Positions 3,359 through 17,172 of a stretch of DNA of 32,000 bases are shown here, piece by piece. How positions within the stretch are numbered: position 1 is the stretch's first letter; every line of letters starts with the position of its first letter. The translations under genes were made by a program, and so were the position numbers. The stretch comes from Pseudodesulfovibrio piezophilus C1TLV30 (GTDB lineage: Bacteria; Desulfobacterota; Desulfovibrionia; Desulfovibrionales; Desulfovibrionaceae): assembly GCF_000341895.1 (NCBI RefSeq), contig NC_020409.1:1260001-1292000 (forward strand), written 5' to 3'. Below the pieces are notes generated by a model, which saw nothing but the letters and a program-made list of their open reading frames with translations, made no database searches and had not been told where the DNA came from.

Positions 3359-3622
3359 CTACCAACGAGGGCGTTCTTCGCGGGGCTTGGCAACGTTCAC
3401 TTTGATGTTGCGGCCACCAAGGTCTTTTCCGTCAAGGGCATCAACAGCGTCACCTGCGCCATTGTCATCCATCTCGACAAAACCAAAACCACGAGGACGG
3501 CCGGTTTCACGATCCTCGATGAGTTTCACAGAAAGCACTTCACCAAATTCAGCAAAAGCTGCGCGAACTTCATCTTCAGTAGTGCTCCAAGACAGATTGC
3601 CGACATAAAGATTCTTAGACAT
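3359..3622 (-). CDS. RRM-type (RNP-1/RNP-2) glycine-poor RNA-binding protein, 87 aa
   Basis: RNP-2 is LYVGNL and RNP-1 is RGFGFVEM. SD GGAGAA lies upstream of the ATG, and a terminator follows. Confidence 0.9.
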   Translation of the reverse strand: MSKNLYVGNLSWSTTEDEVRAAFAEFGEVLSVKLIEDRETGRPRGFGFVEMDDNGAGDAVDALDGKDLGGRNIKVNVAKPREERPRW

Positions 3623-3663
3623 TCAAATTCTCCAAAAAGTGATAATGTATAGCGCCTATGCGC

Positions 3664-3704
3664 CAAAAAAAGGGAGCCGTGTGTACAAGATGCACGCACG
3701 GCTC
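3664..3704 (-). terminator. Strong intrinsic-terminator-like hairpin plus U7 tract on the minus strand; either the HPP gene terminator or a leader attenuator of the RRM gene
   Basis: The stem pairs 3672-3683 with 3693-3704 (GGAGCCGTGTGT / ACGCACGGCTCC; 12 bp including one G-U), with a 9-nt loop. On the minus strand it is followed by TTTTTTT (A-run 3664-3670 on plus). It lies only about 40 nt upstream of the RRM start codon and about 210 nt downstream of the HPP stop. Confidence 0.6.
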
Positions 3705-3913
3705 CTTCGATAGACTTGTTTCAATTCAAACCAGTGCAGGTCACAATTCGACCGCACCTCCACGGGCGCGACTGGTGTTGAAGAAATCAATCCGTCACTT
3801 TTCAAATAAAGTCAAGTCCTATTGACTTAACGGAAGATCCCTGGCTGAGGGGAAAATATATCTTTGAGTTGTAAAAATATGACGAACAAGGGACTTTCAT
3901 ACGTGTAACAGCT

Positions 3914-4435
3914 TCACAGCGACTTCGGGTACACCCTGTCAGGGGCAATTCTGTTCACGACCAAGGCCACGAAAAGCAGGCATGCGGCACCTGTCGCGAC
4001 CGGGAACAAAGCATACATATATCCAAGCTTGTGAATGCCGGGCCCGCCAATGACGGCGATCAAAGCAGTCGCCCCTCCTGGTGGGTGCAAGGTATCAGTC
4101 ATTTGCATGAGAGCTATTGCCGTAGCGACTGCCAGCGGTGCTGCGAGCCATATCTCTCCCAGAAAAAGCTGAAATGCGGCAACACCAACCAAAGCAGAAA
4201 GACAGTGGCCTCCCATCAAATTCCTAGGTTGAGCGAGCGGACTGTCGATTGCCGCGTATATGAGCACGGCTGACGCGCCAAAGGAACCAATGACTAACGT
4301 CAGACCAAGCCCTTCCAATGCAAATCGGGAAACCAAGGAGACAAGAGCGATGCCGAGAAATGCTCCCAACCACGACCAGAAAATCTGAGTTTTTGGAGTA
4401 CGACTTTGCCCTTTCAGAAAATTGTAAACGTTCAT
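3914..4435 (-). CDS. HPP-family integral membrane protein
   Basis: The signature HPPGGATALIAV is present, with about 4-5 hydrophobic helices over 173 aa. Confidence 0.85.
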   Translation of the reverse strand: MNVYNFLKGQSRTPKTQIFWSWLGAFLGIALVSLVSRFALEGLGLTLVIGSFGASAVLIYAAIDSPLAQPRNLMGGHCLSALVGVAAFQLFLGEIWLAAPLAVATAIALMQMTDTLHPPGGATALIAVIGGPGIHKLGYMYALFPVATGAACLLFVALVVNRIAPDRVYPKSL

Positions 4436-4493
4436 GAGACCTCCATACGAGTATACAATCGTTCAAGGTTGGCACGCTCTTCTTTTACTCTCC

Positions 4494-4507
4494 ATGACTT
4501 AAGTCAA
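4494..4507. promoter_or_regulatory. CRP/FNR-family-like palindrome ATGAC-TTAA-GTCAA in the divergent HPP/fprA promoter region
   Basis: TGACTTAAGTCA (4495-4506) is a perfect 12-bp palindrome with TGAC-N4-GTCA geometry (compare the FNR/Dnr consensus TTGAT/C-N4-(A/G)TCAA). A TATGAT -10-like hexamer lies about 50 nt downstream, towards fprA. Confidence 0.35.
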
Positions 4508-4588
4508 CTTTGCAAAAATAATGAAATGATGGAACTTTTCTACTGAGACTGGTATGATTTACCTCACTATCAAAATAAAGGAGCAATC

Positions 4589-5776
4589 ATGAGATTCCAA
4601 ATAACGGACACCGTATCCTGGGTCGGAAAAATAGATTGGGAATTACAAAAATTCCACGGTGAAGAGTATTCCACTTTCAAAGGATCATCCTATAACTCAT
4701 ATCTTATTCAGGACGAAAAAACGGTTCTGATAGATACTGTCTATGGTCCATTTGGAAAAGAGTTTATCGAAAACCTGGAGAATGAAATCGATCTTGGCAG
4801 TATCGACTACGTGATTGCCAATCATGCAGAGGTCGACCATAGCGGGGCACTTCCTGAACTGATGCGCCGGATCCCCAATGTCCCGATCTATTGCACTCAA
4901 CAAGCCACCAAATCCCTGAAGGGATACTACCATCAAGACTGGAACTTCCAGGTAGTCAAAACTGGTGACACGCTCTCTCTTGGCGAAAGAACATTGAATT
5001 TCATCTCGGCACCGATGCTTCACTGGCCAGACTCCATGTTCACCTATCTGGACAAGGAAAACATGCTCTTCAGTAATGATGCCTTTGGGCATCACCTTGC
5101 TTCAGACACGATGTTCAATGATCTGGTCGATCAGGACGAACTCTTCAAAGAGTGCATCAAATATTACGCGAACATACTGACTCCATTCAGCAAGATGGTT
5201 ACGAAAAAAATTAATGAGATTGTGGGATTCGGACTTCCTGTTGACTTTATATTACCCAGCCATGGAGTAATATGGCGTGACGATCCATTGCAAATTGTGC
5301 ACAAATATCTGGAATGGGCTGATGACTACCAAGAAAATCAGATCACGATCATTTACGATACCATGTGGAACAGCACGCGAGACATGGCGGAAGCCATAGC
5401 ACGAGGCATCCGCTCAGTCTGCCCAGACGGAGTCATAAAAATCCTTCATACAGGACAACGAGATAAAAATGACATCATCACTGAAGTATTCCGCTCAAAA
5501 TTGGTGGTGGCTGGCTGCTCCACCATCAACAAGGGAATCCTTTCAAGCATGGCGGGCATTCTCGAAATGATCCATGGACTGGGTTTCAAAGGAAAAAAAG
5601 GGGCGGCATTCGGTTCCTATGGCTGGTCAGGAGAGAGCACAGATATTTTGACCAAATCCCTGGGAAATGCCGGATTTGAAATGATTGGCGAAGGCATCAA
5701 GGCAACTTGGAAGCCTGACCAGGAAGCAATCAGGAAGTGTGAGGCTTACGGCAGACAACTTGGCAAGGAAGTATAA
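4589..5776 (+). CDS. fprA: Class A flavodiiron protein (rubredoxin:oxygen oxidoreductase / NO reductase type; metallo-beta-lactamase-like plus flavodoxin domains)
   Basis: SD AAGGAG is present. The di-iron ligand motif is NHAEVDHSGALPEL (HxExDH), the start WVGKIDWELQKFHG is typical of flavodiiron proteins, and the C-terminal flavodoxin-like segment reads ITIIYDTMWNSTRDMAEAI. Length is 395 aa. Confidence 0.9.
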   Translation: MRFQITDTVSWVGKIDWELQKFHGEEYSTFKGSSYNSYLIQDEKTVLIDTVYGPFGKEFIENLENEIDLGSIDYVIANHAEVDHSGALPELMRRIPNVPIYCTQQATKSLKGYYHQDWNFQVVKTGDTLSLGERTLNFISAPMLHWPDSMFTYLDKENMLFSNDAFGHHLASDTMFNDLVDQDELFKECIKYYANILTPFSKMVTKKINEIVGFGLPVDFILPSHGVIWRDDPLQIVHKYLEWADDYQENQITIIYDTMWNSTRDMAEAIARGIRSVCPDGVIKILHTGQRDKNDIITEVFRSKLVVAGCSTINKGILSSMAGILEMIHGLGFKGKKGAAFGSYGWSGESTDILTKSLGNAGFEMIGEGIKATWKPDQEAIRKCEAYGRQLGKEV

Positions 5777-5861
5777 ATATTCCTTCAAAATTGAAGAGTA
5801 TTCCTGAAAAGGGGAAAAAGGTATCGTCTCTTTCTTAAAAAACGAACGTTTTTTTGACATT

Positions 5862-5903
5862 GAGCCTCACATGCCAGGCTAGTATGCCCGGCCTGTGAGG
5901 CTC
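5862..5903. terminator. Hairpin between the convergent fprA and DUF438 genes (10-bp perfect stem GAGCCTCACA/TGTGAGGCTC, 22-nt loop)
   Basis: Read directly from the sequence. A/T-rich runs (aaaaaacgaacgttttttt) lie just upstream. Its position between two convergent stops fits a shared terminator, but the loop is long and the U-tract is poor. Confidence 0.5.
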
Positions 5904-5931
5904 TCATATCTCGAAAAACATCATTTCCCTT

Positions 5932-7404
5932 CTATTCCCAGTCCAGTAGCCTTTGCTGCCCTTGCAACCCTCTTATGTGTGTGACATCCTGGGCCACTTC
6001 CAGGCATCCGGCATATTCGCCATCTCTTTGTCGGATCGCATAAAAACGGATGTGAATGAAACTCCCCTTCATTTCAATCCAGAATTCAGCCATATCCCGC
6101 TCTCCTGAACGGAATTTTTCCAATATTTTTTCAACCATATACACGCTTTGAGAAGGATGACATCTCGAAACCTCACGACCAAGGATACCTTCGCTGCGGG
6201 GAAAGATACGATGCTCTGTCTGAGAAAAATACGCCACCCGATCTTGTGCATCGACAAAAGAAAGATCAATGGGGAGCGACTGCAAAATGGCGTCAACCAC
6301 TTCCGGGCGCAATTTTCCGGCACTGAGATAAACGAGGTCTTCTCCTCCCTGAGGAGGCGTCCCTGTGTCATATTCCTCAGCCTTCCATTCGTCGCCTGGA
6401 GTGACCCAGGCAAAACCGATCTCTTCTTCCCCTCGGCGAACTCTTGCCCAATCCTCCTCCGAAAAGGTCTCATATGCCATGGGAAACAGGATCTGTTCTT
6501 CCTTGTAAACAAGATCACGTATAGCGATAGTCAGTTCGGTAATCAGAGAAACCGAGACATCCCGGTCCCCATCATTCAGTGCCCCAAGCACCTGTTTAAA
6601 AAGCCCTCTGATATCATCATGGATGGCCCACATGACCTGTGGAGGAGCCGTCAGTCCGTAGGATTCCATCAATGGAAAGAGTTGATTCTCCTTGCGCTCA
6701 TAGTGACGGATGAGAGCGGAAAGGTCTTCCACCGCCAGAATCACCCCACTTCGTGCAGCGGAAAACGTCAAATCATCAGACATGCGCTCTGCTGCATTGT
6801 GCAGATGTGCGGCTCTGCTCTCTGCCTCCCGGTTTTCTGCCTGCAGAGTATGAAGAGGATGCCCCGGCATCATTTCAGGGATACCCGAACTCAGGGAAGA
6901 ATCAAACAACTCCACATGTAGATTACACAATTTCTTGATCTCAGCCTCATCAATGCCGTCGGCGACCAAAGCCTGTTCCATAGCCCCGACCTCAACAGGA
7001 GAAACATCTTTCAAAATGTCATGGAATTCAGACCGAACAGCATCCAGGCTCTCCCCCTGATGGATTCGCGTCACAATATCCTTGAACGCCTTGATACGCT
7101 CCTCCCGAGTCAAACGAAGCTCCCCCCTTTCTCGGCCTCCAGGATTCACCACGACGACAGAATCGTTACTATGCAGATAAATTTGCCCGACAATTCCCAG
7201 CAGAAGCTCATCGGGAGCAAGGCCGCCCAAGAAAGCAGCCTGCGAAATAGATGTCACTTTCGCTAGAGTTTTGCGCAAAATAGGACTTTTCAATTGACTG
7301 AATTGAGGAGATTGCTCCGTGAGAAAATCAAGTAGAAAGGGATACGTATCAAGCAGGCCACCAATTTTTGTTTTCAGGGATACTTCCACGGTTATACCTC
7401 TCAT
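5932..7404 (-). CDS. Multidomain DUF1858 (ScdA_N-like) / hemerythrin HHE cation-binding / DUF438 / PAS protein
   Basis: The N-terminus LLDTYPFLLDFL...LKSPILRKTLAKVTSISQAA is DUF1858-like. The central His/Glu repeats (HPLHTLQAENRE, IRHYERKENQLFPLME, WAIHDDIR) are hemerythrin-like. The C-terminus ...VAYFSQTEHRIFPRSEGILGREVSRCHP...FIHIRFYAIRQRDGEYAGCLEVAQDVT is PAS-like, as in DUF438 proteins. An alternative GTG start at 7389 has a better SD (AGAGG). Confidence 0.8.
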   Translation of the reverse strand: MRGITVEVSLKTKIGGLLDTYPFLLDFLTEQSPQFSQLKSPILRKTLAKVTSISQAAFLGGLAPDELLLGIVGQIYLHSNDSVVVVNPGGRERGELRLTREERIKAFKDIVTRIHQGESLDAVRSEFHDILKDVSPVEVGAMEQALVADGIDEAEIKKLCNLHVELFDSSLSSGIPEMMPGHPLHTLQAENREAESRAAHLHNAAERMSDDLTFSAARSGVILAVEDLSALIRHYERKENQLFPLMESYGLTAPPQVMWAIHDDIRGLFKQVLGALNDGDRDVSVSLITELTIAIRDLVYKEEQILFPMAYETFSEEDWARVRRGEEEIGFAWVTPGDEWKAEEYDTGTPPQGGEDLVYLSAGKLRPEVVDAILQSLPIDLSFVDAQDRVAYFSQTEHRIFPRSEGILGREVSRCHPSQSVYMVEKILEKFRSGERDMAEFWIEMKGSFIHIRFYAIRQRDGEYAGCLEVAQDVTHIRGLQGQQRLLDWE

Positions 7405-7437: not shown

Positions 7438-8062
7438 TACTCTACCATACAAAAACAATCGACCACGGAAAAGGTTCTAGATTCCCTGTCTCTCCCATAC
7501 AATTCCAATGAGACTATTTAAAGGATGAAGATCGAAGCGAGAAAAGAGGGAATCATCAAGACACAGACTTTTTCCCTTCTCAAGCCCTGACCTGACAATG
7601 TACAATAGGATTCTCCCTACACACTATCAAGGCTCTCTGTACAAACGGGAACAGCCTGCCCATGTCATCCGACATTGCTTGATATGAACACAAACCTCAC
7701 GAAAAATCTGGACACCTTAACAAGCCCACGGTAGGCATATTTGATACGAAATATGTGGAATGAACTTTATGAAGTACTGTGCACAAAGGTCTGACCACAG
7801 CAACCGTGGCCCAATAAAAGGGACACCAGCATAACTCGATTTCAAGGAATAGGCGTGTCTGAGATTAGCAATTGATAATATCCATACCATGGAGTAACGT
7901 GTTGCCTCAGTATGCGACAGAGAATGGCGCAAAGATTATTTTGGCTCCCGCATCATGGGCAGAATTCGCTCATGTGCGCAGTCTCATCACTCAAAAAAGA
8001 ATCAATAGATAAAAAAAAGCCTAATGCCCAACAATACCCTTGAGGCGCGTCAGGGACATTGC

Positions 8063-9622
8063 ATGGGAGTATCCCTGCAATGTTTTTTTCTCATCCTCAT
8101 TCTGTCCCTTTTCCTGCCGCTTGCCAACGCGGCCCATGCCCAGGCTCCCCAACCGTTCACACGTCAACTCGTGGTGGACAAGGCTCTCCAACTGAGCCAA
8201 TCGCCCTTTATCCCCTCACAAAAGAAAGTACCAGACTCACTTCTGAAGCTCGATTACGATGCTTGGCGGGACATTCGGTACATTCCGGAAAAGGCACTAT
8301 GGCGTCAGGAAGAACTGCCTTTTCAGCTTCAGTTTTTTCACCCTGGTATGTTTTATGACCAATTAGTGAATATCAACATAGTCGATAATGGAGTCACCAC
8401 ACCGCTCCCCTTTGATACCAGCGCTTTTGACTATGGAAGTAATCATACTCTGCCGGAACAGATACCGTCAGACTTCGGTTTTGCAGGGTTTCGTGTACAT
8501 GGTCCGATTAACACTCCGTCCTATTTCGACGAAATAGCTGTCTTTTTGGGAGCCAGCTATTTCCGGGCCGTGGCCAAAGGCCAGGTCTACGGAATCTCAG
8601 CGCGCGGGCTGGCCATAGATACGGCCCTCCCCAAGGGAGAGGAATTCCCGACTTTCCGCGAATTCTGGATAGAAAAACCCGCCCGCAATAGCGCAAGTCT
8701 GACGATCCACGCCTTGTTGGATAGCCAGAGCCTGACCGGAGCTTATACCTTCGTGATCCGTGGTGGTAAAACAACGACCATGGATGTGACTTCCACTTTG
8801 TTCTTACGGGTGCCAGTGCAAAAAATCGGCATAGGCCCACTGACCAGCATGTTCCTGTTCGGTGAAAATACCAGTCCTCGGGAATTGGACGATTTCCGTC
8901 CTGAAGTGCATGATTCGGACGGACTGCTGATCAAGAATGAATCGGGTGAATGGTTTTGGCGACCTTTGACCAACCCGAAAGCTCTTGAGGTCAACATTTT
9001 CAAATCCGACAATGTTAAAGGATTTGGCCTCCTGCAACGCGACCATGACTTTGCCAATTATCAAGACCTTGAGGCCCGTTCCGAAAAACGTCCCTCCCTC
9101 TGGGTGGAACCACACGGCAAATGGGGACGAGGCCATGTGGAATTGGTCAGCATCCCATCAGAGCAGGAAATCCATGACAATATAGTGGCTTATTGGGTTC
9201 CTGAAGACACTCTCGCGCTCAAGACCCCACAGACATATGAGTATACCCTCCGCTGGTACGCCGGGAGATTCACCCACCCACCTCTGGGCTATGTGCTTGC
9301 GACTCGAACCGGAGCCGCCGAGGGAGGTGGGCGCAGATATATCATCGATTTTTCAGGGAAAGCACTGAGTATTCTTACGCCTCCGGCAAATGTCGAGGGA
9401 GTCATCACTTGCGGAGAAGGAGCCTCTGTGGTTGAACAACATCTGGAAAAGAATCGCTACACTGGAGGATGGCGCCTTTCCTTTGTTGTGCGATCCGACA
9501 AGGAGCCTTCTGCCATTGAGAGAGTTCTGCCCACACGCCAGGCACCAATTGATCTGCGTGTTTTTCTCCGCCTTGATGAAACAACTCTGACAGAAACCTG
9601 GAACTATGCCTACCAGCCCTGA
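8063..9622 (+). CDS. opgG: Periplasmic glucan biosynthesis protein OpgG/MdoG (ORF open from 8024; ATG 8063 preferred)
   Basis: The Sec-type signal peptide is MGVSLQCFFLILILSLFLPLANAAHAQA. MdoG-family segments include FQLQFFHPG, GFAGFRVH, FREFWIEKP, SLWVEP and HDNIVAYW. Confidence 0.85.
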   Translation: MGVSLQCFFLILILSLFLPLANAAHAQAPQPFTRQLVVDKALQLSQSPFIPSQKKVPDSLLKLDYDAWRDIRYIPEKALWRQEELPFQLQFFHPGMFYDQLVNINIVDNGVTTPLPFDTSAFDYGSNHTLPEQIPSDFGFAGFRVHGPINTPSYFDEIAVFLGASYFRAVAKGQVYGISARGLAIDTALPKGEEFPTFREFWIEKPARNSASLTIHALLDSQSLTGAYTFVIRGGKTTTMDVTSTLFLRVPVQKIGIGPLTSMFLFGENTSPRELDDFRPEVHDSDGLLIKNESGEWFWRPLTNPKALEVNIFKSDNVKGFGLLQRDHDFANYQDLEARSEKRPSLWVEPHGKWGRGHVELVSIPSEQEIHDNIVAYWVPEDTLALKTPQTYEYTLRWYAGRFTHPPLGYVLATRTGAAEGGGRRYIIDFSGKALSILTPPANVEGVITCGEGASVVEQHLEKNRYTGGWRLSFVVRSDKEPSAIERVLPTRQAPIDLRVFLRLDETTLTETWNYAYQP

Positions 9623-9980
9623 TACCGGCACAGCAAAGAGTTCTTCCTGCCGTGAACAGACGGCCCGTCGCCTCCTCATTTACCTGGAGAGGTTCCCCAT
9701 GAGCACGGAAGACCGCCTGGAGTTGGCGCTGGAGGTTTTGCGAAGCCTTCCAGTGGACTCCACCCCGGACCAGGCTCTGGCCGCATTGTGGCCCAGGTTG
9801 CCACAGGTTGCTCCTGATGCTTTCCCTCCGGCATATCCCTGTATTAAGCGGGGCCATATGCCCAGCCAATATCTCGGCCGCCCCCGCACTGGCTTCATCG
9901 GCTTTGCCGCTCGCTGGGGATGGCTGCTTTTCATCATCATGCTCCTTGGACTGACCCTTTTACTCAACAATATGCCGTGA
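9606..9980 (+). CDS. Hypothetical small membrane-anchored protein wedged between opgG and opgH
   Basis: This 124-codon ORF starts (ATG 9606) inside the last codons of opgG, and its TGA (9978-9980) lies 2 nt before the opgH ATG (9983). It fills an otherwise unexplained 360-nt gap. The C-terminal hydrophobic helix is WGWLLFIIMLLGLTLLL. An alternative start is ATG 9699 (MSTEDRLE). I recognise no family. Confidence 0.5.
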   Translation: MPTSPDTGTAKSSSCREQTARRLLIYLERFPMSTEDRLELALEVLRSLPVDSTPDQALAALWPRLPQVAPDAFPPAYPCIKRGHMPSQYLGRPRTGFIGFAARWGWLLFIIMLLGLTLLLNNMP

Positions 9981-9982
9981 GT

Positions 9983-12097
9983 ATGACTCTGAACCATGAA
10001 AAGAAGAGAACCTGGCGAGGATCGGCCAGAAAACGCCGACTTGTTCTCGGTCTGCTTATCCTGATCCCATCAGCATTCTCCAGTTCTTATGTTGCCTCAG
10101 TCCTGCCACATAAGGGTGGAACCCCGCTGGAACTGGCTATTGTGATTGTTTATTCAATTCTTTTCGCCTGGATTTCAGTGGGATTCTGGACAGCTGTTAT
10201 GGGCTGCTTCACCCTGTTACGTCGCTATGACCGGTTTGCCGTCAGTCACGCCCTTTCCACGTCAGAACTCAAGCCCTCCACTGTTCGCACAGCAGTCTTA
10301 TTTCCCATTTGCAACGAGGATACCCCCCGTGTAATGGCCGGGATCAAGAGCACATATCTCTCACTTCAAAAGATGGACGGGGGTGAAAATTTTGATATCC
10401 ACATCCTGAGCGATTCACAGGGGGCGGACAAATGGATGGAGGAAGAGGCGGCTTGGGTCGACCTGGTGGAAGAGCTTGGAGCACAAGGGCACATATTCTA
10501 TCGACACAGAAAGGTGAACCTGAAACGTAAAAGTGGCAATGTCGCAGAGTTTTGCCGCCGTCATGGTCAACTATACACTTACATGGCGGTATTCGACGCT
10601 GACAGCGTCATGAGTGGACAGTCGCTCAAAGGTATGGTTCGCATAATGGAGCTGAATGAACGAATCGGCATTCTGCAAACCGCTCCGGCCTGTTTCGGGC
10701 GCAATACCCTGCTCGGACGATTGCAACAATTCGCCAACAGGGTTTACGGTCCCATGTTTGCGGCAGGACTCCACTTCTGGCAATTGGGGGACGCTCAATA
10801 CTGGGGACATAACGCCCTCATTCGCATCGAACCATTCATGCGCCATTGTGGCCTCCCCAGACTTCCCGGAAAGCCTCCCAAGGGAGGCGACATTCTCAGC
10901 CATGATTTCGTGGAGGCAGCACTCATGCGCCGAGCTGGATGGGGAGTATGGTTGGCTTTCGATCTCCAGGGCAGCTGGGAAGAATGTCCACCCAACCTTC
11001 TGTCGGAGCTGAAAAGAGACCGTCGCTGGTGCCAGGGAAACTTACAACATTTACGGCTGCTGTTCACCGAAGGACTGTTCCCGGCACACCGCATTCTCTT
11101 TCTCAATGGTGCCATGAGTTACGCTTCGGCTCTGCTCTGGTTTCTGTTTCTCATGCTTTCTTCAGCCGAAGCAGTTGTCGAAGCCATTGTCGGTCCTGTC
11201 TACTTTTCAACAGGCAAAACACTCTTTCCCAATTGGCCTGTATGGCAACCGTCGTGGGCCATGATCCTGTTAGCCACAACCGGTGTGCTCCTCTTTCTGC
11301 CAAAGGTTCTCAGTTTTCTCTTGCTCATCTTCAAGACCCGTCAGGCTCAACTGTTCGGAGGAGTGTTCCGCCTCCTTATCAGTATACTCCTGGAAGTTGT
11401 CTTTTCAGCGCTTTTGGCACCTATTCGCATGTTGTTTCATAGTAAATTCGTTTGCATGATCCTCTTGGGGAAAAAAATCGGATGGGGCACGCAGCAGCGG
11501 GACGACAAAAAAACTCCCTGGCTTGACGCACTTCGTTTCCATGGTGGGGGCACTTTCTTCGGTCTTCTCTGGGGAGGCATTGTCTGGCTCTACTCACCTG
11601 AATTTTTCTGGTGGATAAGCCCCATTGTCATTCCCATAGTCCTCTCTGTGCCGCTTTCCGTCATAACAAGTCGACGAGACCTGGGACAATGGCTGCGGAA
11701 AAAACGTTTATTGCTCATCCCCGAAGAAACTGAGCCTGCCCCAGAAATCATTCAGGTCAGCCGCTTCACCCAAGAAATGGAAGAAGCACCTGTCTTTCTC
11801 GACCTCCCACGTGAAGCAGGATTCCTTCGAGCCATCATCGACCCGCGAATCAACGCTTTGCGCCGCTCCCTACTGACCCGTCATACTCGACAAGTCGGTC
11901 CGGCGGAAATTTCTCGCCGGAATCAACTAACCCAAAAAGTCTTGCAACACGGACCGAGTATTCTTACTCCGGCACAACAACTCATCCTTTTGCGTGACCC
12001 TGACTCCCTCCTTCAACTCCACCAATACGCCTGGGCGCTCGATAAACATGTTTTTCAAGAACGCTGGTTAAGGAACTCAGCACGTTCAAGACCATAA
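9983..12097 (+). CDS. opgH: Glucans biosynthesis glucosyltransferase H (OpgH/MdoH, GT2 family, polytopic membrane protein)
   Basis: The first TM region RKRRLVLGLLILIPS...VLPHKGG parallels that of known OpgH proteins. GT2 motifs include VLFPICNED, FDADSVM, WGHNALIR, ILSHDFVEAALMRRAGW and RDRRWCQGNLQH. I prefer ATG 9983 over the track start at 9920. Confidence 0.9.
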   Translation: MTLNHEKKRTWRGSARKRRLVLGLLILIPSAFSSSYVASVLPHKGGTPLELAIVIVYSILFAWISVGFWTAVMGCFTLLRRYDRFAVSHALSTSELKPSTVRTAVLFPICNEDTPRVMAGIKSTYLSLQKMDGGENFDIHILSDSQGADKWMEEEAAWVDLVEELGAQGHIFYRHRKVNLKRKSGNVAEFCRRHGQLYTYMAVFDADSVMSGQSLKGMVRIMELNERIGILQTAPACFGRNTLLGRLQQFANRVYGPMFAAGLHFWQLGDAQYWGHNALIRIEPFMRHCGLPRLPGKPPKGGDILSHDFVEAALMRRAGWGVWLAFDLQGSWEECPPNLLSELKRDRRWCQGNLQHLRLLFTEGLFPAHRILFLNGAMSYASALLWFLFLMLSSAEAVVEAIVGPVYFSTGKTLFPNWPVWQPSWAMILLATTGVLLFLPKVLSFLLLIFKTRQAQLFGGVFRLLISILLEVVFSALLAPIRMLFHSKFVCMILLGKKIGWGTQQRDDKKTPWLDALRFHGGGTFFGLLWGGIVWLYSPEFFWWISPIVIPIVLSVPLSVITSRRDLGQWLRKKRLLLIPEETEPAPEIIQVSRFTQEMEEAPVFLDLPREAGFLRAIIDPRINALRRSLLTRHTRQVGPAEISRRNQLTQKVLQHGPSILTPAQQLILLRDPDSLLQLHQYAWALDKHVFQERWLRNSARSRP

Positions 12098-12514
12098 ATA
12101 GACATGAGTGGGGTCAGCGGGGCCAGGAGGGAAACAAGCATTTCACCATGACCCCACCCCAAAAAACACAACTTGGATATCTCAACAGTCAGCTTCTCTG
12201 GTTTTTATTTACAAGTAAACCTGCATAAGCTAACCGTAATCACCGCTTATGGGGTTAGCGTGCAGTGTCTAACAAGACGCATACGTATTAGATGCGATGT
12301 GGCATCATCCGATCAGTTCGTCGTGAAATTCTTGCCAAGGATATGCTCCACTGTAATTTTATCAAAAAAACGCCTCTCTATAAATTTACTTGCAAATGTC
12401 TCATTTCAGGTGTCTTAAGCACCTCGACTGTTCCTCTCTGTAGCTTTTTTGGGGGAAAGAATACCATGAACAGACAATCAGTTCGCCATTTAACAACCTC
12501 CGCAGTATGAATGA

Positions 12515-14701
12515 ATGGTGTGTAATTCGATGAACTTTTCTTTTCGTCCACTTTATGTGTTGATCTATGCCCTTGCCATGCTCTCTCTTTTGGGCCTCCC
12601 CTGCTCTGCTGCCAGCAAAATAATGATTAATGAAGTCTTTGTGGACGGTTCCTCCAACTACCCGGACTGGATTGAATTATTCAATGCCGGAGATACTTCA
12701 TCCTCCTTGGGCGGGTACCGTCTCTCGGACGACCTGGACGATACGGGATGGGCCATTCCCGAAACATTCTCGATTGCTCCCGGTCAATACAAAGTTTTCA
12801 TATGTGACAAACGAAATGCATATGACCATACCAACTTCAGGTTGAAAAGTATCGCAGGCCAAGTGTATCTCCTGACCCCCTCTGGAGAGCTTGCAGATCA
12901 AATCGAATATGACAGCCTTCCACGCTTTTCATCCATAGGGCGCTATCCTGATGGGAAACCTCAATGGTTCGTCCATTCCACTCCAACAATGGAAAGCAAA
13001 AACACACAAAGCCGAACACCTGTTGCTCACACTGGTACAGCTGACTCTCTCCATATCTCACATACCAGCGGTCTCTATGACAAACCATTTATGCTAACCA
13101 TGCAGCCTCCCCCCGGAACCAAGGTTCGTTATACTTTGGACGGAAGTATCCCCACCATGGAATCCAGGCTCTACGCCAATGCTCTAAAAATTGATTCCAC
13201 AACCATAATCCGTATAGCCGTCATCACGTCGGATCACACTCTCAGCACGCCTGAAACTCGATCCTACTTCATAGGTGAATCCACCGAACTTCCGCTCATA
13301 TCTCTCGTCACTGACCCAAAGAACCTGTGGGATCCTGAAATTGGTATCTACGCAGAGGGAGATTCCGTAACCGAAGCTGGAACACAATCACACAATTGGC
13401 AGCGCAAATGGCGGCGTCCTGTTCACATCGACTTCATGACCAAGACAGAACAGTGGAGTATTGACGGGAATTGCCGAATTTTCGGCGGAGCTTCACGAGG
13501 GAGGCCACAAAAGTCCTTCGCAGTCTATGCAGATGACAAAAACACCCCATATGGCATTGAGCACCGCCTTTTTCCTGATACAGACCGAGAACGATATGCA
13601 GGATTCATACTACGCAATGGAGGAGATGCCTGGCTGCGAACTCAATTCAGAGATGCTTTTCAGCAAGCCTTAATTCAGGACCGAGCAGAGGTCGAATCCA
13701 TGCGATATCGTCCGGTTCTTGTTTTTATCAATGGCACATACTGGGGAGTTTACGGATTGCGAGAAGCCATGATCAAAAAGAATCTGCTCGCCGGGCGAGA
13801 CCTCCCTCTACAGCCGGTCAAAATCTTGAATAACAGGGGGATATCTTCAAAAAAAGGGCCTTTTTCCGACTTCAAGTCGGTTCCTGTCCAAGGTGAGTAT
13901 CGCCCGTCCCTTCCCTCTTTGGACATAGATTCTTACCTTGATTATCTCGCAATAGAACTCTATTCTGGAAACATTGACTGGCCTGACGGCAACATCAAAG
14001 TCTGGCGTCCTCTCACCACCCCCAAGAGCACATGGAGGTGGATTCTTTATGATCTCGACAGAGGATTCAACGGAAAACGAGGAAAATCCGCACAGGAAGA
14101 TCCCTTTGTAGAACTATTAAGAAGGCCTGGCCCTCGTGGACTGCATTTTTCAGACTTAATAAAAAATGACCTGTTTGTCCGGGATTTCTGCTCTCGACTT
14201 ACTGTACATATACTCACGACATTCCGACCGGAGCGTGCTCTGTCAATTCTTAATCGCATGGTGCGAATGCTCAGGCCTGAAATGGAACGGCATTGGGAAA
14301 GATGGCATTGGTCCTGGCAACTCGACAGGCTCTTCATGAATATGGATAGATGGGAAGAGTATCTGGCAACTCTCCGTCAATTCTGTGAGCAACGCCCCTC
14401 TGCCATGATGAGAATCATGGATAAACATTTTAAGACAGGAACACCACTCCCGACTTCCTTGACGATCATGAAGCAAGGGAAAGGTCGCATCATGGCTGAA
14501 GGGCTGGTTCTGCCAGATGGGAAACTGACAGGTTTAATTCCAGAAAACATCAAAATCCGAATTGAAGCCCAACCAGCACCGGGTTATATCTTTGCGGGTT
14601 GGGAAAACGCCCCACGCAGTACAGATCCCTATAAGATTCTTGAGGCGGGTACATCGGTAACAGATCGCGCCCTCTTTTCACCAATTGATAATGAAGAGTA
14701 A
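12515..14701 (+). CDS. Secreted multidomain CotH-family atypical kinase (signal peptide / lamin-tail domain / chitobiase-Fn3-associated-like domain / CotH kinase domain / C-terminal InlB-B-repeat-like domain)
   Basis: The signal peptide is MNFSFRPLYVLIYALAMLSLLGLPCSAAS (alternative ATG 12530). The LTD-like segment is IMINEVFVDGSSNYPDWIELFN...LGGYRLSDD. KVRYTLDGSIPT is typical of the CHB_HEX_C-like domain. The CotH core includes KSFAVY, FILRNGGDAWLRTQFRD, VFINGTYWGVYGLRE, NIDWPDGNIKVWRP and WRWILYDLD. The C-terminal EAQPAPGYIFAGWEN is repeat-like. Confidence 0.85.
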   Translation: MVCNSMNFSFRPLYVLIYALAMLSLLGLPCSAASKIMINEVFVDGSSNYPDWIELFNAGDTSSSLGGYRLSDDLDDTGWAIPETFSIAPGQYKVFICDKRNAYDHTNFRLKSIAGQVYLLTPSGELADQIEYDSLPRFSSIGRYPDGKPQWFVHSTPTMESKNTQSRTPVAHTGTADSLHISHTSGLYDKPFMLTMQPPPGTKVRYTLDGSIPTMESRLYANALKIDSTTIIRIAVITSDHTLSTPETRSYFIGESTELPLISLVTDPKNLWDPEIGIYAEGDSVTEAGTQSHNWQRKWRRPVHIDFMTKTEQWSIDGNCRIFGGASRGRPQKSFAVYADDKNTPYGIEHRLFPDTDRERYAGFILRNGGDAWLRTQFRDAFQQALIQDRAEVESMRYRPVLVFINGTYWGVYGLREAMIKKNLLAGRDLPLQPVKILNNRGISSKKGPFSDFKSVPVQGEYRPSLPSLDIDSYLDYLAIELYSGNIDWPDGNIKVWRPLTTPKSTWRWILYDLDRGFNGKRGKSAQEDPFVELLRRPGPRGLHFSDLIKNDLFVRDFCSRLTVHILTTFRPERALSILNRMVRMLRPEMERHWERWHWSWQLDRLFMNMDRWEEYLATLRQFCEQRPSAMMRIMDKHFKTGTPLPTSLTIMKQGKGRIMAEGLVLPDGKLTGLIPENIKIRIEAQPAPGYIFAGWENAPRSTDPYKILEAGTSVTDRALFSPIDNEE

Positions 14702-14707
14702 TTTTTT

Positions 14708-15640
14708 ATGACAGACACACTGACGTTCAATACCGGGAAAAAAAGGCTTGCAGGTTGCCTGATAGCCGCTTTATCTACCACCTCATCGGTAGTCATAAGC
14801 AAATCGATAACCCATAACAACCTGAGCCAATTGCAAAGTAGCCTCCCTATTGCATTGGCTGTCGGCCTCTGCCTGGGAATTCTCTATTATTATGCCATGG
14901 CGCAAATTCTGCCACGGCTGCATAGAGATCATCATGGAGAACTCTGGGCCGGACTCTCCTGGTTCAACCTTGCAACCATTAGTCTATGGGGAATCCTTCT
15001 GCCCTTGCCGACATACTACATCGATTTCGGTATAGGCTTTATCTTCACAGGGGGGTGTGCCCGCCTCATTGGTTCGGTGTATACCATTTTTGGGACGTCT
15101 CTTTCAAATCGTAAACGTTTTGCAAATACATTCGTCATGTTGGCTCTGACTATCATGCTTGTTATTTCAGTGGTCAAAGCCTCATTGGCTCTCTCCCTGG
15201 GACTGGTCGGCGCATTATCCATTGTTCGTTTCAGAACAGCCATCAAGGAACCTGAGGAACTTGCTTTTCTCTTCTTTACTGTAGCCATCGGACTCGGATT
15301 CGGTGCGGAAAAATTCGGCGTCACCCTTGCTGCATTCTGGGCTATCTGCGTTGGTTTTATTTTCTTTTGCAAAATCAGGACATCCAACACCATGGATAAT
15401 GCCTACATGGTCACGATATATGGCCCTAAAGAGGGGTTACTGAATTCGGTTCACACATTCCTGGATGAACATAACCTGACCTATGAGTTCACTCGGCTTG
15501 AGACAAGTGACACCTCGAACCATGTCAGTTTCCTTGTCGAAATGAAAAACAGCAATGTCCTTAATATCCTCGGCCAAAAATTCCAGGACGACAACCCGCA
15601 AACCAACGTCTCCATCATTCAGGCTCGGAGCCTTTTTTGA
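14708..15640 (+). CDS. DUF4956-family polytopic membrane protein with an extended N-terminal TM region and a C-terminal soluble alpha/beta domain
   Basis: The family signature is SLGLVGALSIVRFRTAIKEPEELAFLFFTVAIGLGFGA. There are about 6-7 hydrophobic helices, then about 85 soluble residues (YMVTIYGPKEG...FLVEMKN...). It starts 6 nt after the CotH stop, and its stop overlaps the next start (TGATG). Confidence 0.8.
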   Translation: MTDTLTFNTGKKRLAGCLIAALSTTSSVVISKSITHNNLSQLQSSLPIALAVGLCLGILYYYAMAQILPRLHRDHHGELWAGLSWFNLATISLWGILLPLPTYYIDFGIGFIFTGGCARLIGSVYTIFGTSLSNRKRFANTFVMLALTIMLVISVVKASLALSLGLVGALSIVRFRTAIKEPEELAFLFFTVAIGLGFGAEKFGVTLAAFWAICVGFIFFCKIRTSNTMDNAYMVTIYGPKEGLLNSVHTFLDEHNLTYEFTRLETSDTSNHVSFLVEMKNSNVLNILGQKFQDDNPQTNVSIIQARSLF

Positions 15641-16314
15641 TGATCGACGCGACTGACGGGACGTCTTCCTACCGATACGAGCGCAAATTCACGATTCCAC
15701 TGCCTGCCGTTCGTAACTTGGCCTCCATATTACGAACCAGCAGATTTGGATTTCGAGAAATATATTCAACTCGGTATGTCAATAATATCTATTATGATAC
15801 ACCATTATTCAAATTTTATGGCGAAAATATGGAAGGTCTTTCAGAACGAAAGAAAATTCGTATCCGCTGGTATGGTGCTTCAGAATTACCGAGTGCATGC
15901 CGATTCGAAATCAAACATAAAAAAGGGCTTGTCGGCTTCAAGGATGTAGTTCCCGCAACATGCGCCTTCAACAGTTCATGCGGGATGCCAAGTCTCATCA
16001 ATGTCACTGTCCCGGACAAGTTCCTTCATGAAACTGTCGGCCTTTTCCCAACTTTGATGAATAGATATCAACGCCGATATTTTCTCTCGATGGATGGAAA
16101 GTTTCGGGCGACCATCGACTACGAACTCTCATACAGCCACCCAAGTACAGCCCACCGAGGCGGAATAGGGTACTTTGACAATGAAGCTGTCTTGGAACTG
16201 AAATACGATCATGAATTTGACATGGATGCAGCACAGGTTTCCAAAGAAATCCCTTTTTCTTTTTCCAAAAAATCGAAATATGTTACAGGGGTCAACATAG
16301 TCTATGGGTGTTAA
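15640..16314 (+). CDS. VTC-domain protein (Vtc4-like polyphosphate polymerase / triphosphate tunnel metalloenzyme fold), cytoplasmic
   Basis: It has YRYERKF near the N-terminus, NNIYYDTP, ERKKIRIRWYG, FEIKHKKG, RRYF..DGKFRATIDYEL and LELKYD, the pattern of alternating charged beta-strands seen in bacterial VTC (PF09359-type) proteins. ATG 15640 overlaps the upstream TGA. Confidence 0.8.
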   Translation: MIDATDGTSSYRYERKFTIPLPAVRNLASILRTSRFGFREIYSTRYVNNIYYDTPLFKFYGENMEGLSERKKIRIRWYGASELPSACRFEIKHKKGLVGFKDVVPATCAFNSSCGMPSLINVTVPDKFLHETVGLFPTLMNRYQRRYFLSMDGKFRATIDYELSYSHPSTAHRGGIGYFDNEAVLELKYDHEFDMDAAQVSKEIPFSFSKKSKYVTGVNIVYGC

Positions 16315-16600
16315 GCTATGCGTGAAAAATAATCCTGGATGTACGATTCAGGTAATTCGAAGCAATATGGACACATGACGACGGCAGCATCAAAGCCGCA
16401 CTTCTGGACATGCTGAGTCAATTCGATGCTCTCCCGGACGTCCATACCTCCAGTCCCAGCAAACAGCGTAAACCGTCCTTTTGCATACTCGGCAACAAAG
16501 GAAAATGTTGTTTTTTTAAAGCTCAAAAAAAATACCCTTGTCAAGCTTCTTCCTTTTCAAAGTGGCGATCCATTTTATGACCACCGCACAAGTATGATTT
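16311..16600 (-). pseudogene. Truncated and decayed dihydrodipicolinate synthase / N-acetylneuraminate lyase family (DapA/NanA) gene remnant
   Basis: The 77-aa ORF (16311-16544) reads ...AKGRFTLFAGTGGMDVRESIELTQHVQKCGFDAAVVMCPYCFELPESYIQDYFSRIA. It aligns by eye with E. coli DapA residues ~70-125 ([23 protein letters not shown]...[21 protein letters not shown]). It stops before the catalytic YNVP/Lys regions. Upstream (16545-16600), a frame-shifted, stop-interrupted CGGHKMDRHFEKEEA resembles the GTTGE..L..EE segment. The stop shares the TTAA at 16311-16314 with the convergent VTC gene stop. Confidence 0.6.
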
Positions 16601-16761
16601 CATAAGTCTGGAAGACTGCTCTCAAAAATTTATCAGAATAATCCTTTAAAATCAAATAAATAACCCAAAACAGTCTCTAATCTGCCCGCTAAAATCATGC
16701 TGATTGCTTTGGACCTGGAACTCACATAAATTTCCGACTGAACACGCTCTGCCAACTCTGC

Positions 16762-17172
16762 ATGACAGAGTCAAAAGACTCATTGCAATGTCACGGTCCT
16801 GAGAAAATAATGATTCATGATATCAAATATATACTACGGCTGGCAGCTTCAGTGCTGTTCGTTTTTCATCTTGTTCAAGCCTCCCCGTGGTATGAATCGA
16901 CTTCTCTCCATCCATTAGGAAAAGTTTCTGGAGAAACCTTTCTCTTGGCTCCCTCTCTCCTTGAACAAGCCTTAAACCCCACCGATTTTACTTCAAAACC
17001 ACACTTTGAATCCACTGATACCGTTTATGAAAAAGCTCTGAACCACGAGCAAACAGCAATCAATTTTGGCGGGACACTGCTCTGTTTTTCTTCCGAAGCC
17101 AACACCCGCTTCACCCAATATTTACGACTGGCCCCGATAACGAGCCGCGCACCTCCATATTCCAAGGTTTAA
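16762..17172 (+). CDS. Hypothetical protein with an N-terminal signal/anchor-like helix (alternative start ATG 16810)
   Basis: The ORF has the hydrophobic segment ILRLAASVLFVFHLVQASPW. I recognise no family and the SD is weak. It lies upstream of a small TM ORF and a strong terminator, which suggests a transcribed unit. Confidence 0.35.
   Translation: MTESKDSLQCHGPEKIMIHDIKYILRLAASVLFVFHLVQASPWYESTSLHPLGKVSGETFLLAPSLLEQALNPTDFTSKPHFESTDTVYEKALNHEQTAINFGGTLLCFSSEANTRFTQYLRLAPITSRAPPYSKV

Follow-up and report, generated by a model that had tools for sequence, protein, structure and literature searches.

We analysed a 32,000-nucleotide stretch of the Pseudodesulfovibrio piezophilus genome (hereafter the window, with positions counted from its first letter) in which three genes on the + strand, at 12515-16314, encode a CotH-family kinase, a DUF4956 membrane protein and a VTC-domain protein resembling Vtc4, the catalytic subunit of the yeast polyphosphate (polyP) polymerase complex. 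Our results show that these genes form one operon and one conserved functional module, which is ancient and widespread. The best reading of this triad, to which we assign a probability of roughly 0.4 from sequence analysis, is that polyP would be made by the Vtc4-like enzyme, exported via the DUF4956 protein and used by the exported CotH protein.

Gene 1, encoding the exported, multidomain CotH-family kinase, occupies 12515..14701 (728 aa; an alternative ATG lies at 12530), gene 2, for the DUF4956 membrane protein, 14708..15640 (310 aa) and gene 3, for a stand-alone Vtc4-like triphosphate-tunnel enzyme, 15640..16314 (224 aa; alternative TTG start at 15637), all on the + strand, as are the features within them. 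Read from the sequence, the gene 1/gene 2 junction is TAA-tttttt-ATG, a 6-nt gap, and the gene 2/gene 3 junction is TGATG, a 1-nt overlap. Open reading frames (ORFs) and junctions agree with an earlier note on this DNA (the original prediction), which had proposed a co-directional three-gene operon with this spacing. The same note had called gene 1 a protein with a signal peptide and a CotH core, gene 2 a polytopic DUF4956 protein with two quoted motifs and gene 3 a soluble VTC-domain protein, all of which are borne out by the Pfam, hydropathy and AlphaFold results given below. It had also proposed profile searches and a neighbourhood survey; the former gave significant matches for CotH, VTC and DUF4956, and the latter revealed strong conservation.

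For this survey, the VTC profile was run against 185,579 species genomes (one per species) and the best 80 of at least 590 confirmed loci were analysed over ±10 kb, the partner families being detected with iterated hidden Markov models (HMMs) built inside those loci. Among the 80 VTC loci, a DUF4956 gene is present in 60, a CotH kinase gene in 60 and both in 55; where at least 4 kb of sequence was available on each side, both partners were found in 40 of 52 loci. The CotH counts are lower bounds, because in the majority of Bacteroidota proteins the CotH-core HMM aligned to just a portion of the domain. In Flavobacteriaceae, some 'CotH-cluster' proteins encoded upstream of VTC proved to be beta-helix proteins with no Pfam CotH match. 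The partners lie on the same strand as VTC almost without exception (DUF4956 60/60, CotH 66/68), and DUF4956-VTC is the tightest pair in the triad, with a median gap of 14 bp. Six gene orders occur, CotH-DUF4956-VTC (20 loci), DUF4956-CotH-VTC (15), VTC-DUF4956-CotH (13), DUF4956-VTC-CotH (4) and two more that account for three loci with an extra CotH gene. That linkage has been kept despite this shuffling of gene order argues for selection for co-function, as expected of a functional module. The triad is found in at least 10 phyla, including Bacteroidota, Desulfobacterota, Nitrospinota, Planctomycetota, Verrucomicrobiota, Chloroflexota, Spirochaetota, Omnitrophota and Ignavibacteriota. Moreover, a reverse search from four diverse DUF4956 proteins found VTC adjacent in all four cases and CotH in three, the fourth locus lying at a contig end. 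The arrangement is far beyond chance.

Gene 3 matches the Pfam VTC family PF09359 with E=2.3e-22 and is 100% identical to the P. piezophilus protein that NCBI names 'polyphosphate polymerase domain-containing protein'. It has no hydrophobic segment (Kyte-Doolittle maximum 0.9). With its AlphaFold model (pLDDT 87) as query, the top 12 Foldseek matches were all yeast Vtc2/3/4 tunnel domains (E 7e-10 to 9e-9 and TMq 0.61-0.70 to yeast Vtc3/Vtc2/Vtc4), other triphosphate-tunnel enzymes (ygiF, SaTTM, CyaB) following further down the list. Profile alignment to 3g3q equates R74/R76, K92, R145 and R156 of gene 3 with Vtc4 R264/R266, K281, R361 and R373; by motif inspection only, E186 (ELKY motif) corresponds to Vtc4 E426 (LEVK) and K213 (SKY) to Vtc4 K458 (SKF), where the inactive Vtc2 has SIF. 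All of these gene 3 residues (R74, R76, K92, R145, R156, E186 and K213) are invariant in 24 bacterial homologues, and Vtc4 R264A/R266A/E426N is a published catalytically impaired (dead) mutant (PMC9911596). Alignment and modelled fold together show a putative stand-alone, cytoplasmic Vtc4-like enzyme that keeps the Vtc4 catalytic residues.

The wider VTC family comprises 10,542 representatives at 50% identity and E<=1e-3, a figure that may include eukaryotic VTC proteins; among the best 150, every protein is stand-alone, with a length of 219-277 aa. Two candidate fusions were rejected: the extra part of a 527-aa DUF4956 protein (L048) is an N-terminal 3-keto-disaccharide-hydrolase-like domain, and the length of a 315-aa VTC protein (L055) is an ORF-start artefact. 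A number of Saprospiraceae loci (L018, L029, L036, L043, L049, L053, L073, L074, L077 and L080) hold a short (~210 aa) VTC protein with neither DUF4956 nor CotH, in a conserved GT1-GT1(or c15)-RibBA-VTC arrangement beside a PorP/SprF gene, and the enzyme therefore also has a partner-free mode.

Gene 1 matches Pfam CotH (PF08757) with E=6.7e-33 (115 bits, cutoff 23.8), LTD (PF00932) with E=2.7e-16 and CHB_HEX_C_1 with E=2.6e-11; Fn3_assoc was matched too. A Sec signal peptide is predicted at 12515..12610 (aa 1-32, cleavage after C-S-A) by a heuristic combination of sequence inspection and Kyte-Doolittle hydropathy: in the N-terminal sequence MVCNSMNFSFRPLYVLIYALAMLSLLGLPCSA/AS, a single basic residue is accompanied by a hydrophobic core (19-aa maximum of 2.0, at residue 15) and a C-S-A cleavage-type motif. 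The non-catalytic domains that follow at 12605..13243 are a lamin-tail domain (aa 31-132) and a CHB_HEX_C/Fn3-associated region (aa 184-245), and the CotH kinase core lies at 13448..14434 (~aa 312-640). A phmmer search with the gene 1 protein against PDB sequences found nothing; a 10-sequence profile of its kinase region matched Bacillus cereus CotH (5jd9) with E=1.1e-27. Residues were mapped by alignment with B. cereus CotH and 65 triad-linked CotH proteins, in which gene 1 D488 corresponds to B. cereus D224 and B. subtilis D228, N493 to B. cereus N229, and D513 to B. cereus D247 and B. subtilis D251, while K333-S334 align with the B. cereus K-S of the nucleotide-binding strand. B. subtilis CotH is inactive once D228 (D228Q) or D251 (D251A) is mutated (PMC7821199). 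By these alignments, gene 1 encodes a CotH-type phosphotransferase whose catalytic residues are intact, and the predicted signal peptide would send it to the periplasm or the cell surface. The D488 column is occupied by His (motif HG..WHN.RFY) in 54 of 67 triad-linked CotH proteins, including those of all 10 loci that contain the pyrophosphatase gene described below, and the Asp is shared by the window protein and Bacillus CotH; the His-type proteins may be a mechanistically distinct subfamily, or may reflect a one-residue alignment shift.

Gene 2 matches DUF4956 (PF16316) with E=3.3e-16 (59.9 bits, cutoff 30.6), is 100% identical to a P. piezophilus 'DUF4956 domain-containing protein' and contains the motifs GALSIVRFRT and FLFFTVAIGLG. 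Its AlphaFold model (pLDDT 83) has eight helices and a C-terminal domain. Model and alignment together delimit three extra N-terminal helices (aa 10-97, within 14708-15010) and a conserved five-helix core (aa 102-223). Five helices and ~226 aa are the family core; the three extra helices, absent from the ~226-aa form elsewhere, were found among the sequences aligned only in Desulfovibrionales (Pseudodesulfovibrio, Humidesulfovibrio, Desulfovibrio, Desulfobaculum and Desulfoplanes). The DUF4956 profile was matched by 40/40 aligned homologues, in which S133-N134-R135, K157, A161-L170, S171, I172, R174, R176, K180, P182, E183, E184 and L185 are invariant, giving the core a near-invariant signature of SLSNR, K157 and ALSLGLVGALSIVRFRxAIKEPEEL. 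The C-terminal beta-alpha-beta-beta-alpha-beta domain (15401..15625, aa 232-306) is ACT/PII-like by Foldseek, the ACT proteins 1zpv and 3ibw in the PDB being matched with E 4e-3 to 1e-2 and TM(target) 0.63-0.75. The positive-inside rule applied to the eight modelled helices would place this domain and both charged loops in the cytoplasm.

The membrane part of gene 2 matched no solved structure in a Foldseek search of the PDB, the model did not match the yeast VTC chains 7ytj, 8i6v and 9umg, and the protein has no Pfam DUF202 match. Weak matches to MgtC (PF02308) were obtained for 24 of 40 DUF4956 homologues at E<=1 (best 2.9e-4), all under the Pfam threshold, and none for the window protein itself; some DUF4956 proteins carry the JGI name 'YhiD'. 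The family is very large, with at least 8,000 clusters. Judged by its sequence matches and its model, the DUF4956 protein shows a weak resemblance to MgtC, ends in an ACT-like domain and has no homology to the yeast VTC channel.

The survey loci also contain exported phosphatases. In 26 of them there is a calcineurin-like metallophosphoesterase of ~290-330 aa, a previously unannotated neighbour family (for example L017:6387-7271:+ and L004:3709-4605:+) with invariant GH/GD/GNHD/H motifs and N-terminal signal or lipoprotein sequences; Pfam Metallophos was matched by 13 of 16 members, the first representative having no Pfam match. A family-I inorganic pyrophosphatase gene lies beside the triad in 10 loci (L010, L013, L015, L017, L034, L037, L038, L041, L056 and L067, for example L067:3572-4180:+), with a lipoprotein-type N-terminal signal in every case, such as MKGTAILLFFLVCSC; the window has no such gene. 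Of 65 triad loci, 28 have one or both phosphatase genes. Exporting a pyrophosphatase would be pointless unless pyrophosphate or a longer phosphoanhydride occurred outside the cytoplasm, and these genes therefore support extracytoplasmic phosphoanhydride chemistry. Glycan biosynthesis genes (GT1, GT2, epimerase/dehydratase, Wzy, flippase) are found in at least 27 of 65 triad loci and recur in the loci reached through DUF4956.

In L085 (ENA ERZ27315525 k141_665705), a metagenomic contig of high abundance, a family-B DNA polymerase gene (3502-5949) lies directly upstream of DUF4956-CotH-VTC, and GT10, GT2 and methyltransferase genes are close by. In L087 (Desulfoplanes formicivorans) DUF4956-VTC is followed directly by a YrbL-PhoP_reg gene (PF10707, kinase-like) at 2141-2797 and by polysaccharide deacetylase, Wzy_C and GT4 genes, a further glycan-cluster context within Desulfovibrionales.

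The gene set itself has already been described; new here are its occurrence in a non-pel, Gram-negative context, the breadth of its conservation, the associated exported phosphatases and an explicit mechanism. Whitfield et al. (2020, PLoS Pathog) reported that in streptococci and clostridia pelDEADAFG adjoins a set of accessory genes made up of cotH, 'poly-phosphate polymerase', DUF4956 and DUF4832, the last of which is missing from the bifidobacterial set (PMC7112168). In a 2025 mBio study of Streptococcus intermedius, SIR_1594 (CotH), SIR_1593 (polyP polymerase) and SIR_1592 (DUF4956) were each deleted singly: loss of SIR_1592 or SIR_1594 approximately halved aggregation in artificial sputum, and the two deletions shifted Pel levels in opposite directions (PMC12345266). 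The original prediction took the triad to be uncharacterised; the gene set had in fact been described (PMC7112168) and the S. intermedius deletions made (PMC12345266), in both cases with no mechanism offered. The mBio authors raised a possible link to phosphate metabolism, gave no mechanism and did not find the synteny outside pel loci (PMC12345266), a remark that is too narrow given this window and our survey. The same trio stands beside a chitin-synthase-like gene in Clostridium perfringens NELoc-2 (PMC2879425). In a literature search that left most subscription journals uncovered, we found nothing functional on bacterial VTC proteins, no paper testing one or proposing polyP export to a CotH kinase, and none pairing CotH with 'triphosphate tunnel'.

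From the gene linkage, the compartments and the conservation of catalytic residues we infer a polymerase activity, a translocation step, the use of a donor and a target. On the cytoplasmic side of the membrane, the Vtc4-like enzyme would link γ-phosphates from ATP into polyP, a phosphoanhydride chain. The DUF4956 protein, probably as an oligomer organised by its ACT-like domains, would take up the nascent chain at the cytoplasmic loops (SLSNR, RFRxAIKEPEEL) and conduct it outward; from general bioenergetics, the inside-negative membrane potential would favour exit of a polyanion, with the same polarity as in the yeast vacuole. There is precedent for such a coupling, as yeast VTC couples cytosolic polyP synthesis to translocation via a basic-lined channel (PMC9911596). 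Outside, where there is no ATP, CotH would either draw phosphoryl groups from the chain or attach the chain to an extracytoplasmic polymer. The most likely target class would be a surface or periplasmic glycan, since the kinase has carbohydrate-associated domains and glycan clusters recur around the triad, and a protein target is also possible; in P. piezophilus the target would not be encoded beside the operon. A more specific proposal, which we put forward tentatively, is that bacteria possess a second, Vtc4-type polyP route in which the chain, instead of being stored in the cytoplasm, is threaded through an MgtC-like DUF4956 pore and serves exported CotH kinases as phosphoryl donor, with the exported pyrophosphatase and metallophosphoesterase clearing the end products.

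Several observations weigh against synthesis-coupled export to CotH. Neither the best 150 VTC representatives nor the 80 loci include a VTC-DUF4956 fusion. Fifteen of the 80 VTC loci, mostly from Saprospiraceae, lacked both partners in the HMM search (in two of these, BLAST clustering put a CotH-cluster protein beside VTC), which indicates an enzyme able to function by itself. Neither the window nor its close relatives supplied the exported phosphatases or most of the glycan contexts, which belong to other phyla. To our knowledge no CotH kinase uses polyP, those characterised using ATP. The DUF4956 protein is unrelated to the yeast VTC transmembrane domain, and MgtC, the only family it resembles, is known for regulation and not as a channel (PMC12345266); the analogue of VTC translocation put forward in the original prediction thus stands as regards its predicted three-compartment topology and fails as regards descent. 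Finally, deletion of the S. intermedius VTC gene had no reported effect, and the effects of deleting DUF4956 or CotH were mild (PMC12345266).

The resemblance to MgtC is the starting point for an alternative in which nothing is exported and the triad is a cytoplasmic module for phosphate, ATP or Mg2+ homeostasis or signalling. Here the DUF4956 protein would regulate from the membrane as MgtC does, its ACT-like domain serving as ligand sensor, the VTC protein would make or hydrolyse polyP or triphosphate inside the cell, and CotH would be co-regulated, drawing its phosphoryl donor from elsewhere or not acting as a kinase in vivo. The weak MgtC matches and ACT-like C-terminal domain fit this account, as do the link of MgtC to ATP synthase and PhoR control (cited in PMC12345266), the hydrolase or cyclase activities of the other triphosphate-tunnel enzymes in the Foldseek list and the VTC genes that lack partners in some clades. 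It leaves unexplained, however, the firm tie of the pair to an exported kinase in at least 10 phyla and in shuffled orders, and the recruitment of genes for exported pyrophosphatase and metallophosphoesterase. In addition, the closest matches of the VTC protein are Vtc4-type polymerases, and it has the Lys that is absent from the inactive Vtc2. We consider it unlikely. A surface polyP coat would share with the donor model all evidence up to the export step and differ from it in the role of CotH, which would not consume polyP as a donor and would act as a transferase or anchor, fixing the chain covalently to a surface protein or glycan as an anionic coat or matrix component. Such a role would suit the binding-type domains of CotH (LTD and CHB_HEX_C here, beta-helix in other phyla), the presence of the triad in matrix- or capsule-type clusters and the altered aggregation on deletion, and the exported metallophosphoesterase could trim such a coat. 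The window CotH nevertheless keeps the kinase D-N-D constellation, which fits a single phosphoryl transfer at least as well, and we know of no polyP-transferase activity for the CotH fold, so we regard a coat as distinctly unlikely.

The original prediction had offered a further alternative, that the triad decorates the osmoregulated periplasmic glucans (OPGs) specified by the adjoining genes. By ORF and Pfam analysis, opgG (8024-9622) and opgH (9920-12097) do lie directly upstream on the same strand, OPGs bear phosphate-containing substituents in some bacteria, and the triad is generally associated with glycan synthases. A gap of 417 nt (12098..12514) nevertheless separates opgH from the CotH gene. 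In four Desulfovibrionales relatives (the metagenome-assembled genome L001, P. thermohalotolerans, P. hydrargyri and Desulfovibrio sp. UCD-KL4C) the CotH-DUF4956-VTC order is kept between flanks that differ each time, the syntenic part being the triad only; opgGH adjacency is absent in all four, and no OpgG or OpgH homologue turned up in any of the 80 survey loci. An OPG-specific function is therefore highly improbable, the looser link to glycan clusters being what recurs elsewhere. The probability left over beside export to CotH and these alternatives belongs to functions not yet imagined.

The triad operon probably has a promoter of its own within the opgH-CotH gap, autonomous expression being expected because the upstream genes are unrelated in the four relatives. 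A sigma-70 consensus scan found no + strand site in 12098..12514, and promoter and terminator consensus counts over the window were at or below those of shuffled sequence. The G+C content of the triad region (12000-17000) is 0.42-0.49, below the 0.50-0.55 of the adjoining opgGH region (8000-12000). This lower G+C and the different genomic place of the triad in each of the four relatives suggest that it moves as a cassette. Downstream lies a gene for a Kef-type antiporter, and the remaining genes of the window serve transport and the housekeeping of an anaerobe; among the scanned window ORFs of at least 150 aa, Pfam detected no pel or DUF4832 family. NCBIfam has no informative model for any of the three triad proteins, and PADLOC gave no match for them, so that the triad is not a known defence system. 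Two short + strand ORFs have no Pfam match: one of 124 aa (9606-9980), hydrophobic at its C-terminal end, overlaps the last part of opgG and the first part of opgH and could represent either a small membrane protein or a wrongly called N-terminus of opgH, and the other, of 136 aa (16762-17172), lies downstream of the triad and has a hydrophobic N-terminus.

The periplasm lacks ATP, and the source of energy for phosphoryl transfer by enzymes outside the bacterial cytoplasm is accordingly an open problem. A VTC enzyme so firmly linked, in many phyla, to both a membrane protein and an exported kinase offers a concrete, testable answer to this problem of supply. If correct, it would provide an ATP-independent line of energy and phosphate for phosphorylating periplasmic or surface glycans or proteins, extend VTC-type synthesis-coupled polyP translocation from eukaryotic organelles to bacteria, and give a function to the DUF4956 family and a first molecular function to the DUF4956/MgtC-like membrane fold. 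It would also explain accessory genes of the pel biofilm loci of streptococci, clostridia and bifidobacteria and of C. perfringens NELoc-2, and predict a class of phosphorylated or polyP-decorated surface polymers. If it is false, the triad is still a widespread conserved module deserving of a knockout study.

Each component can be compared with a known system. The DUF4956 protein resembles MgtC/SapB/YhiD in having a helical membrane domain followed by an ACT-like cytoplasmic domain, and differs in its own near-invariant motif (SLSNR...ALSLGLVGALSIVRFRxAIKEPEEL) and in its partnership with VTC and CotH, which is not an MgtC feature. Gene 1 belongs to the same Pfam family as Bacillus CotH (B. 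cereus 5jd9, B. subtilis) and keeps its catalytic Asp, Asn and metal-binding Asp. Bacillus CotH, however, is a single-domain protein that acts on CotB and CotG in the mother cell, where ATP is present, whereas the window CotH has double the length, with binding domains and a signal peptide, and its Gram-negative host does not sporulate. CotH is also distantly related to the Fam20-type kinases of the secretory pathway (PMC7821199). Like CotH here, these animal kinases act outside the cytosol; unlike CotH, they are served by ATP imported into the Golgi lumen. Fam20B phosphorylates a sugar, and we know of no ATP supply to the bacterial periplasm, a gap that polyP export would close. In Zetaproteobacteria, a giant SH3-CotH protein (Sfz6) has been associated with a stalk-formation cluster, next to which lies an ATP/ADP antiporter gene (PMC8250860), and this antiporter may be a different way of supplying phosphoryl donor to an exported CotH kinase.

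Among whole gene sets, the Gram-positive pel accessory set has the same three families in one cluster, with a CotH predicted to be secreted and a membrane protein with an intracellular ACT domain. The window differs in its Gram-negative, sulfate-reducing host, in the lack of pel genes over 32 kb, in a CotH with LTD and CHB_HEX_C instead of FN3, in a DUF4956 protein with three extra N-terminal helices and in having no DUF4832 glycoside hydrolase. With the yeast and trypanosomatid VTC complex (catalytic Vtc4 with Vtc1/2/3/5), gene 3 shares the tunnel fold and the catalytic residues, and as in yeast the enzyme faces the cytoplasm and is tied genetically to a membrane protein. In contrast to its yeast counterpart, gene 3 is a single 224-aa domain with neither an SPX sensor nor a fused three-helix transmembrane region, its DUF4956 partner is unrelated to the three-helix Vtc transmembrane domains, and the destination of the chain would be the periplasm or surface instead of the vacuole. 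Moreover, eukaryotic VTC works without an exported kinase, whereas the bacterial triad has one.

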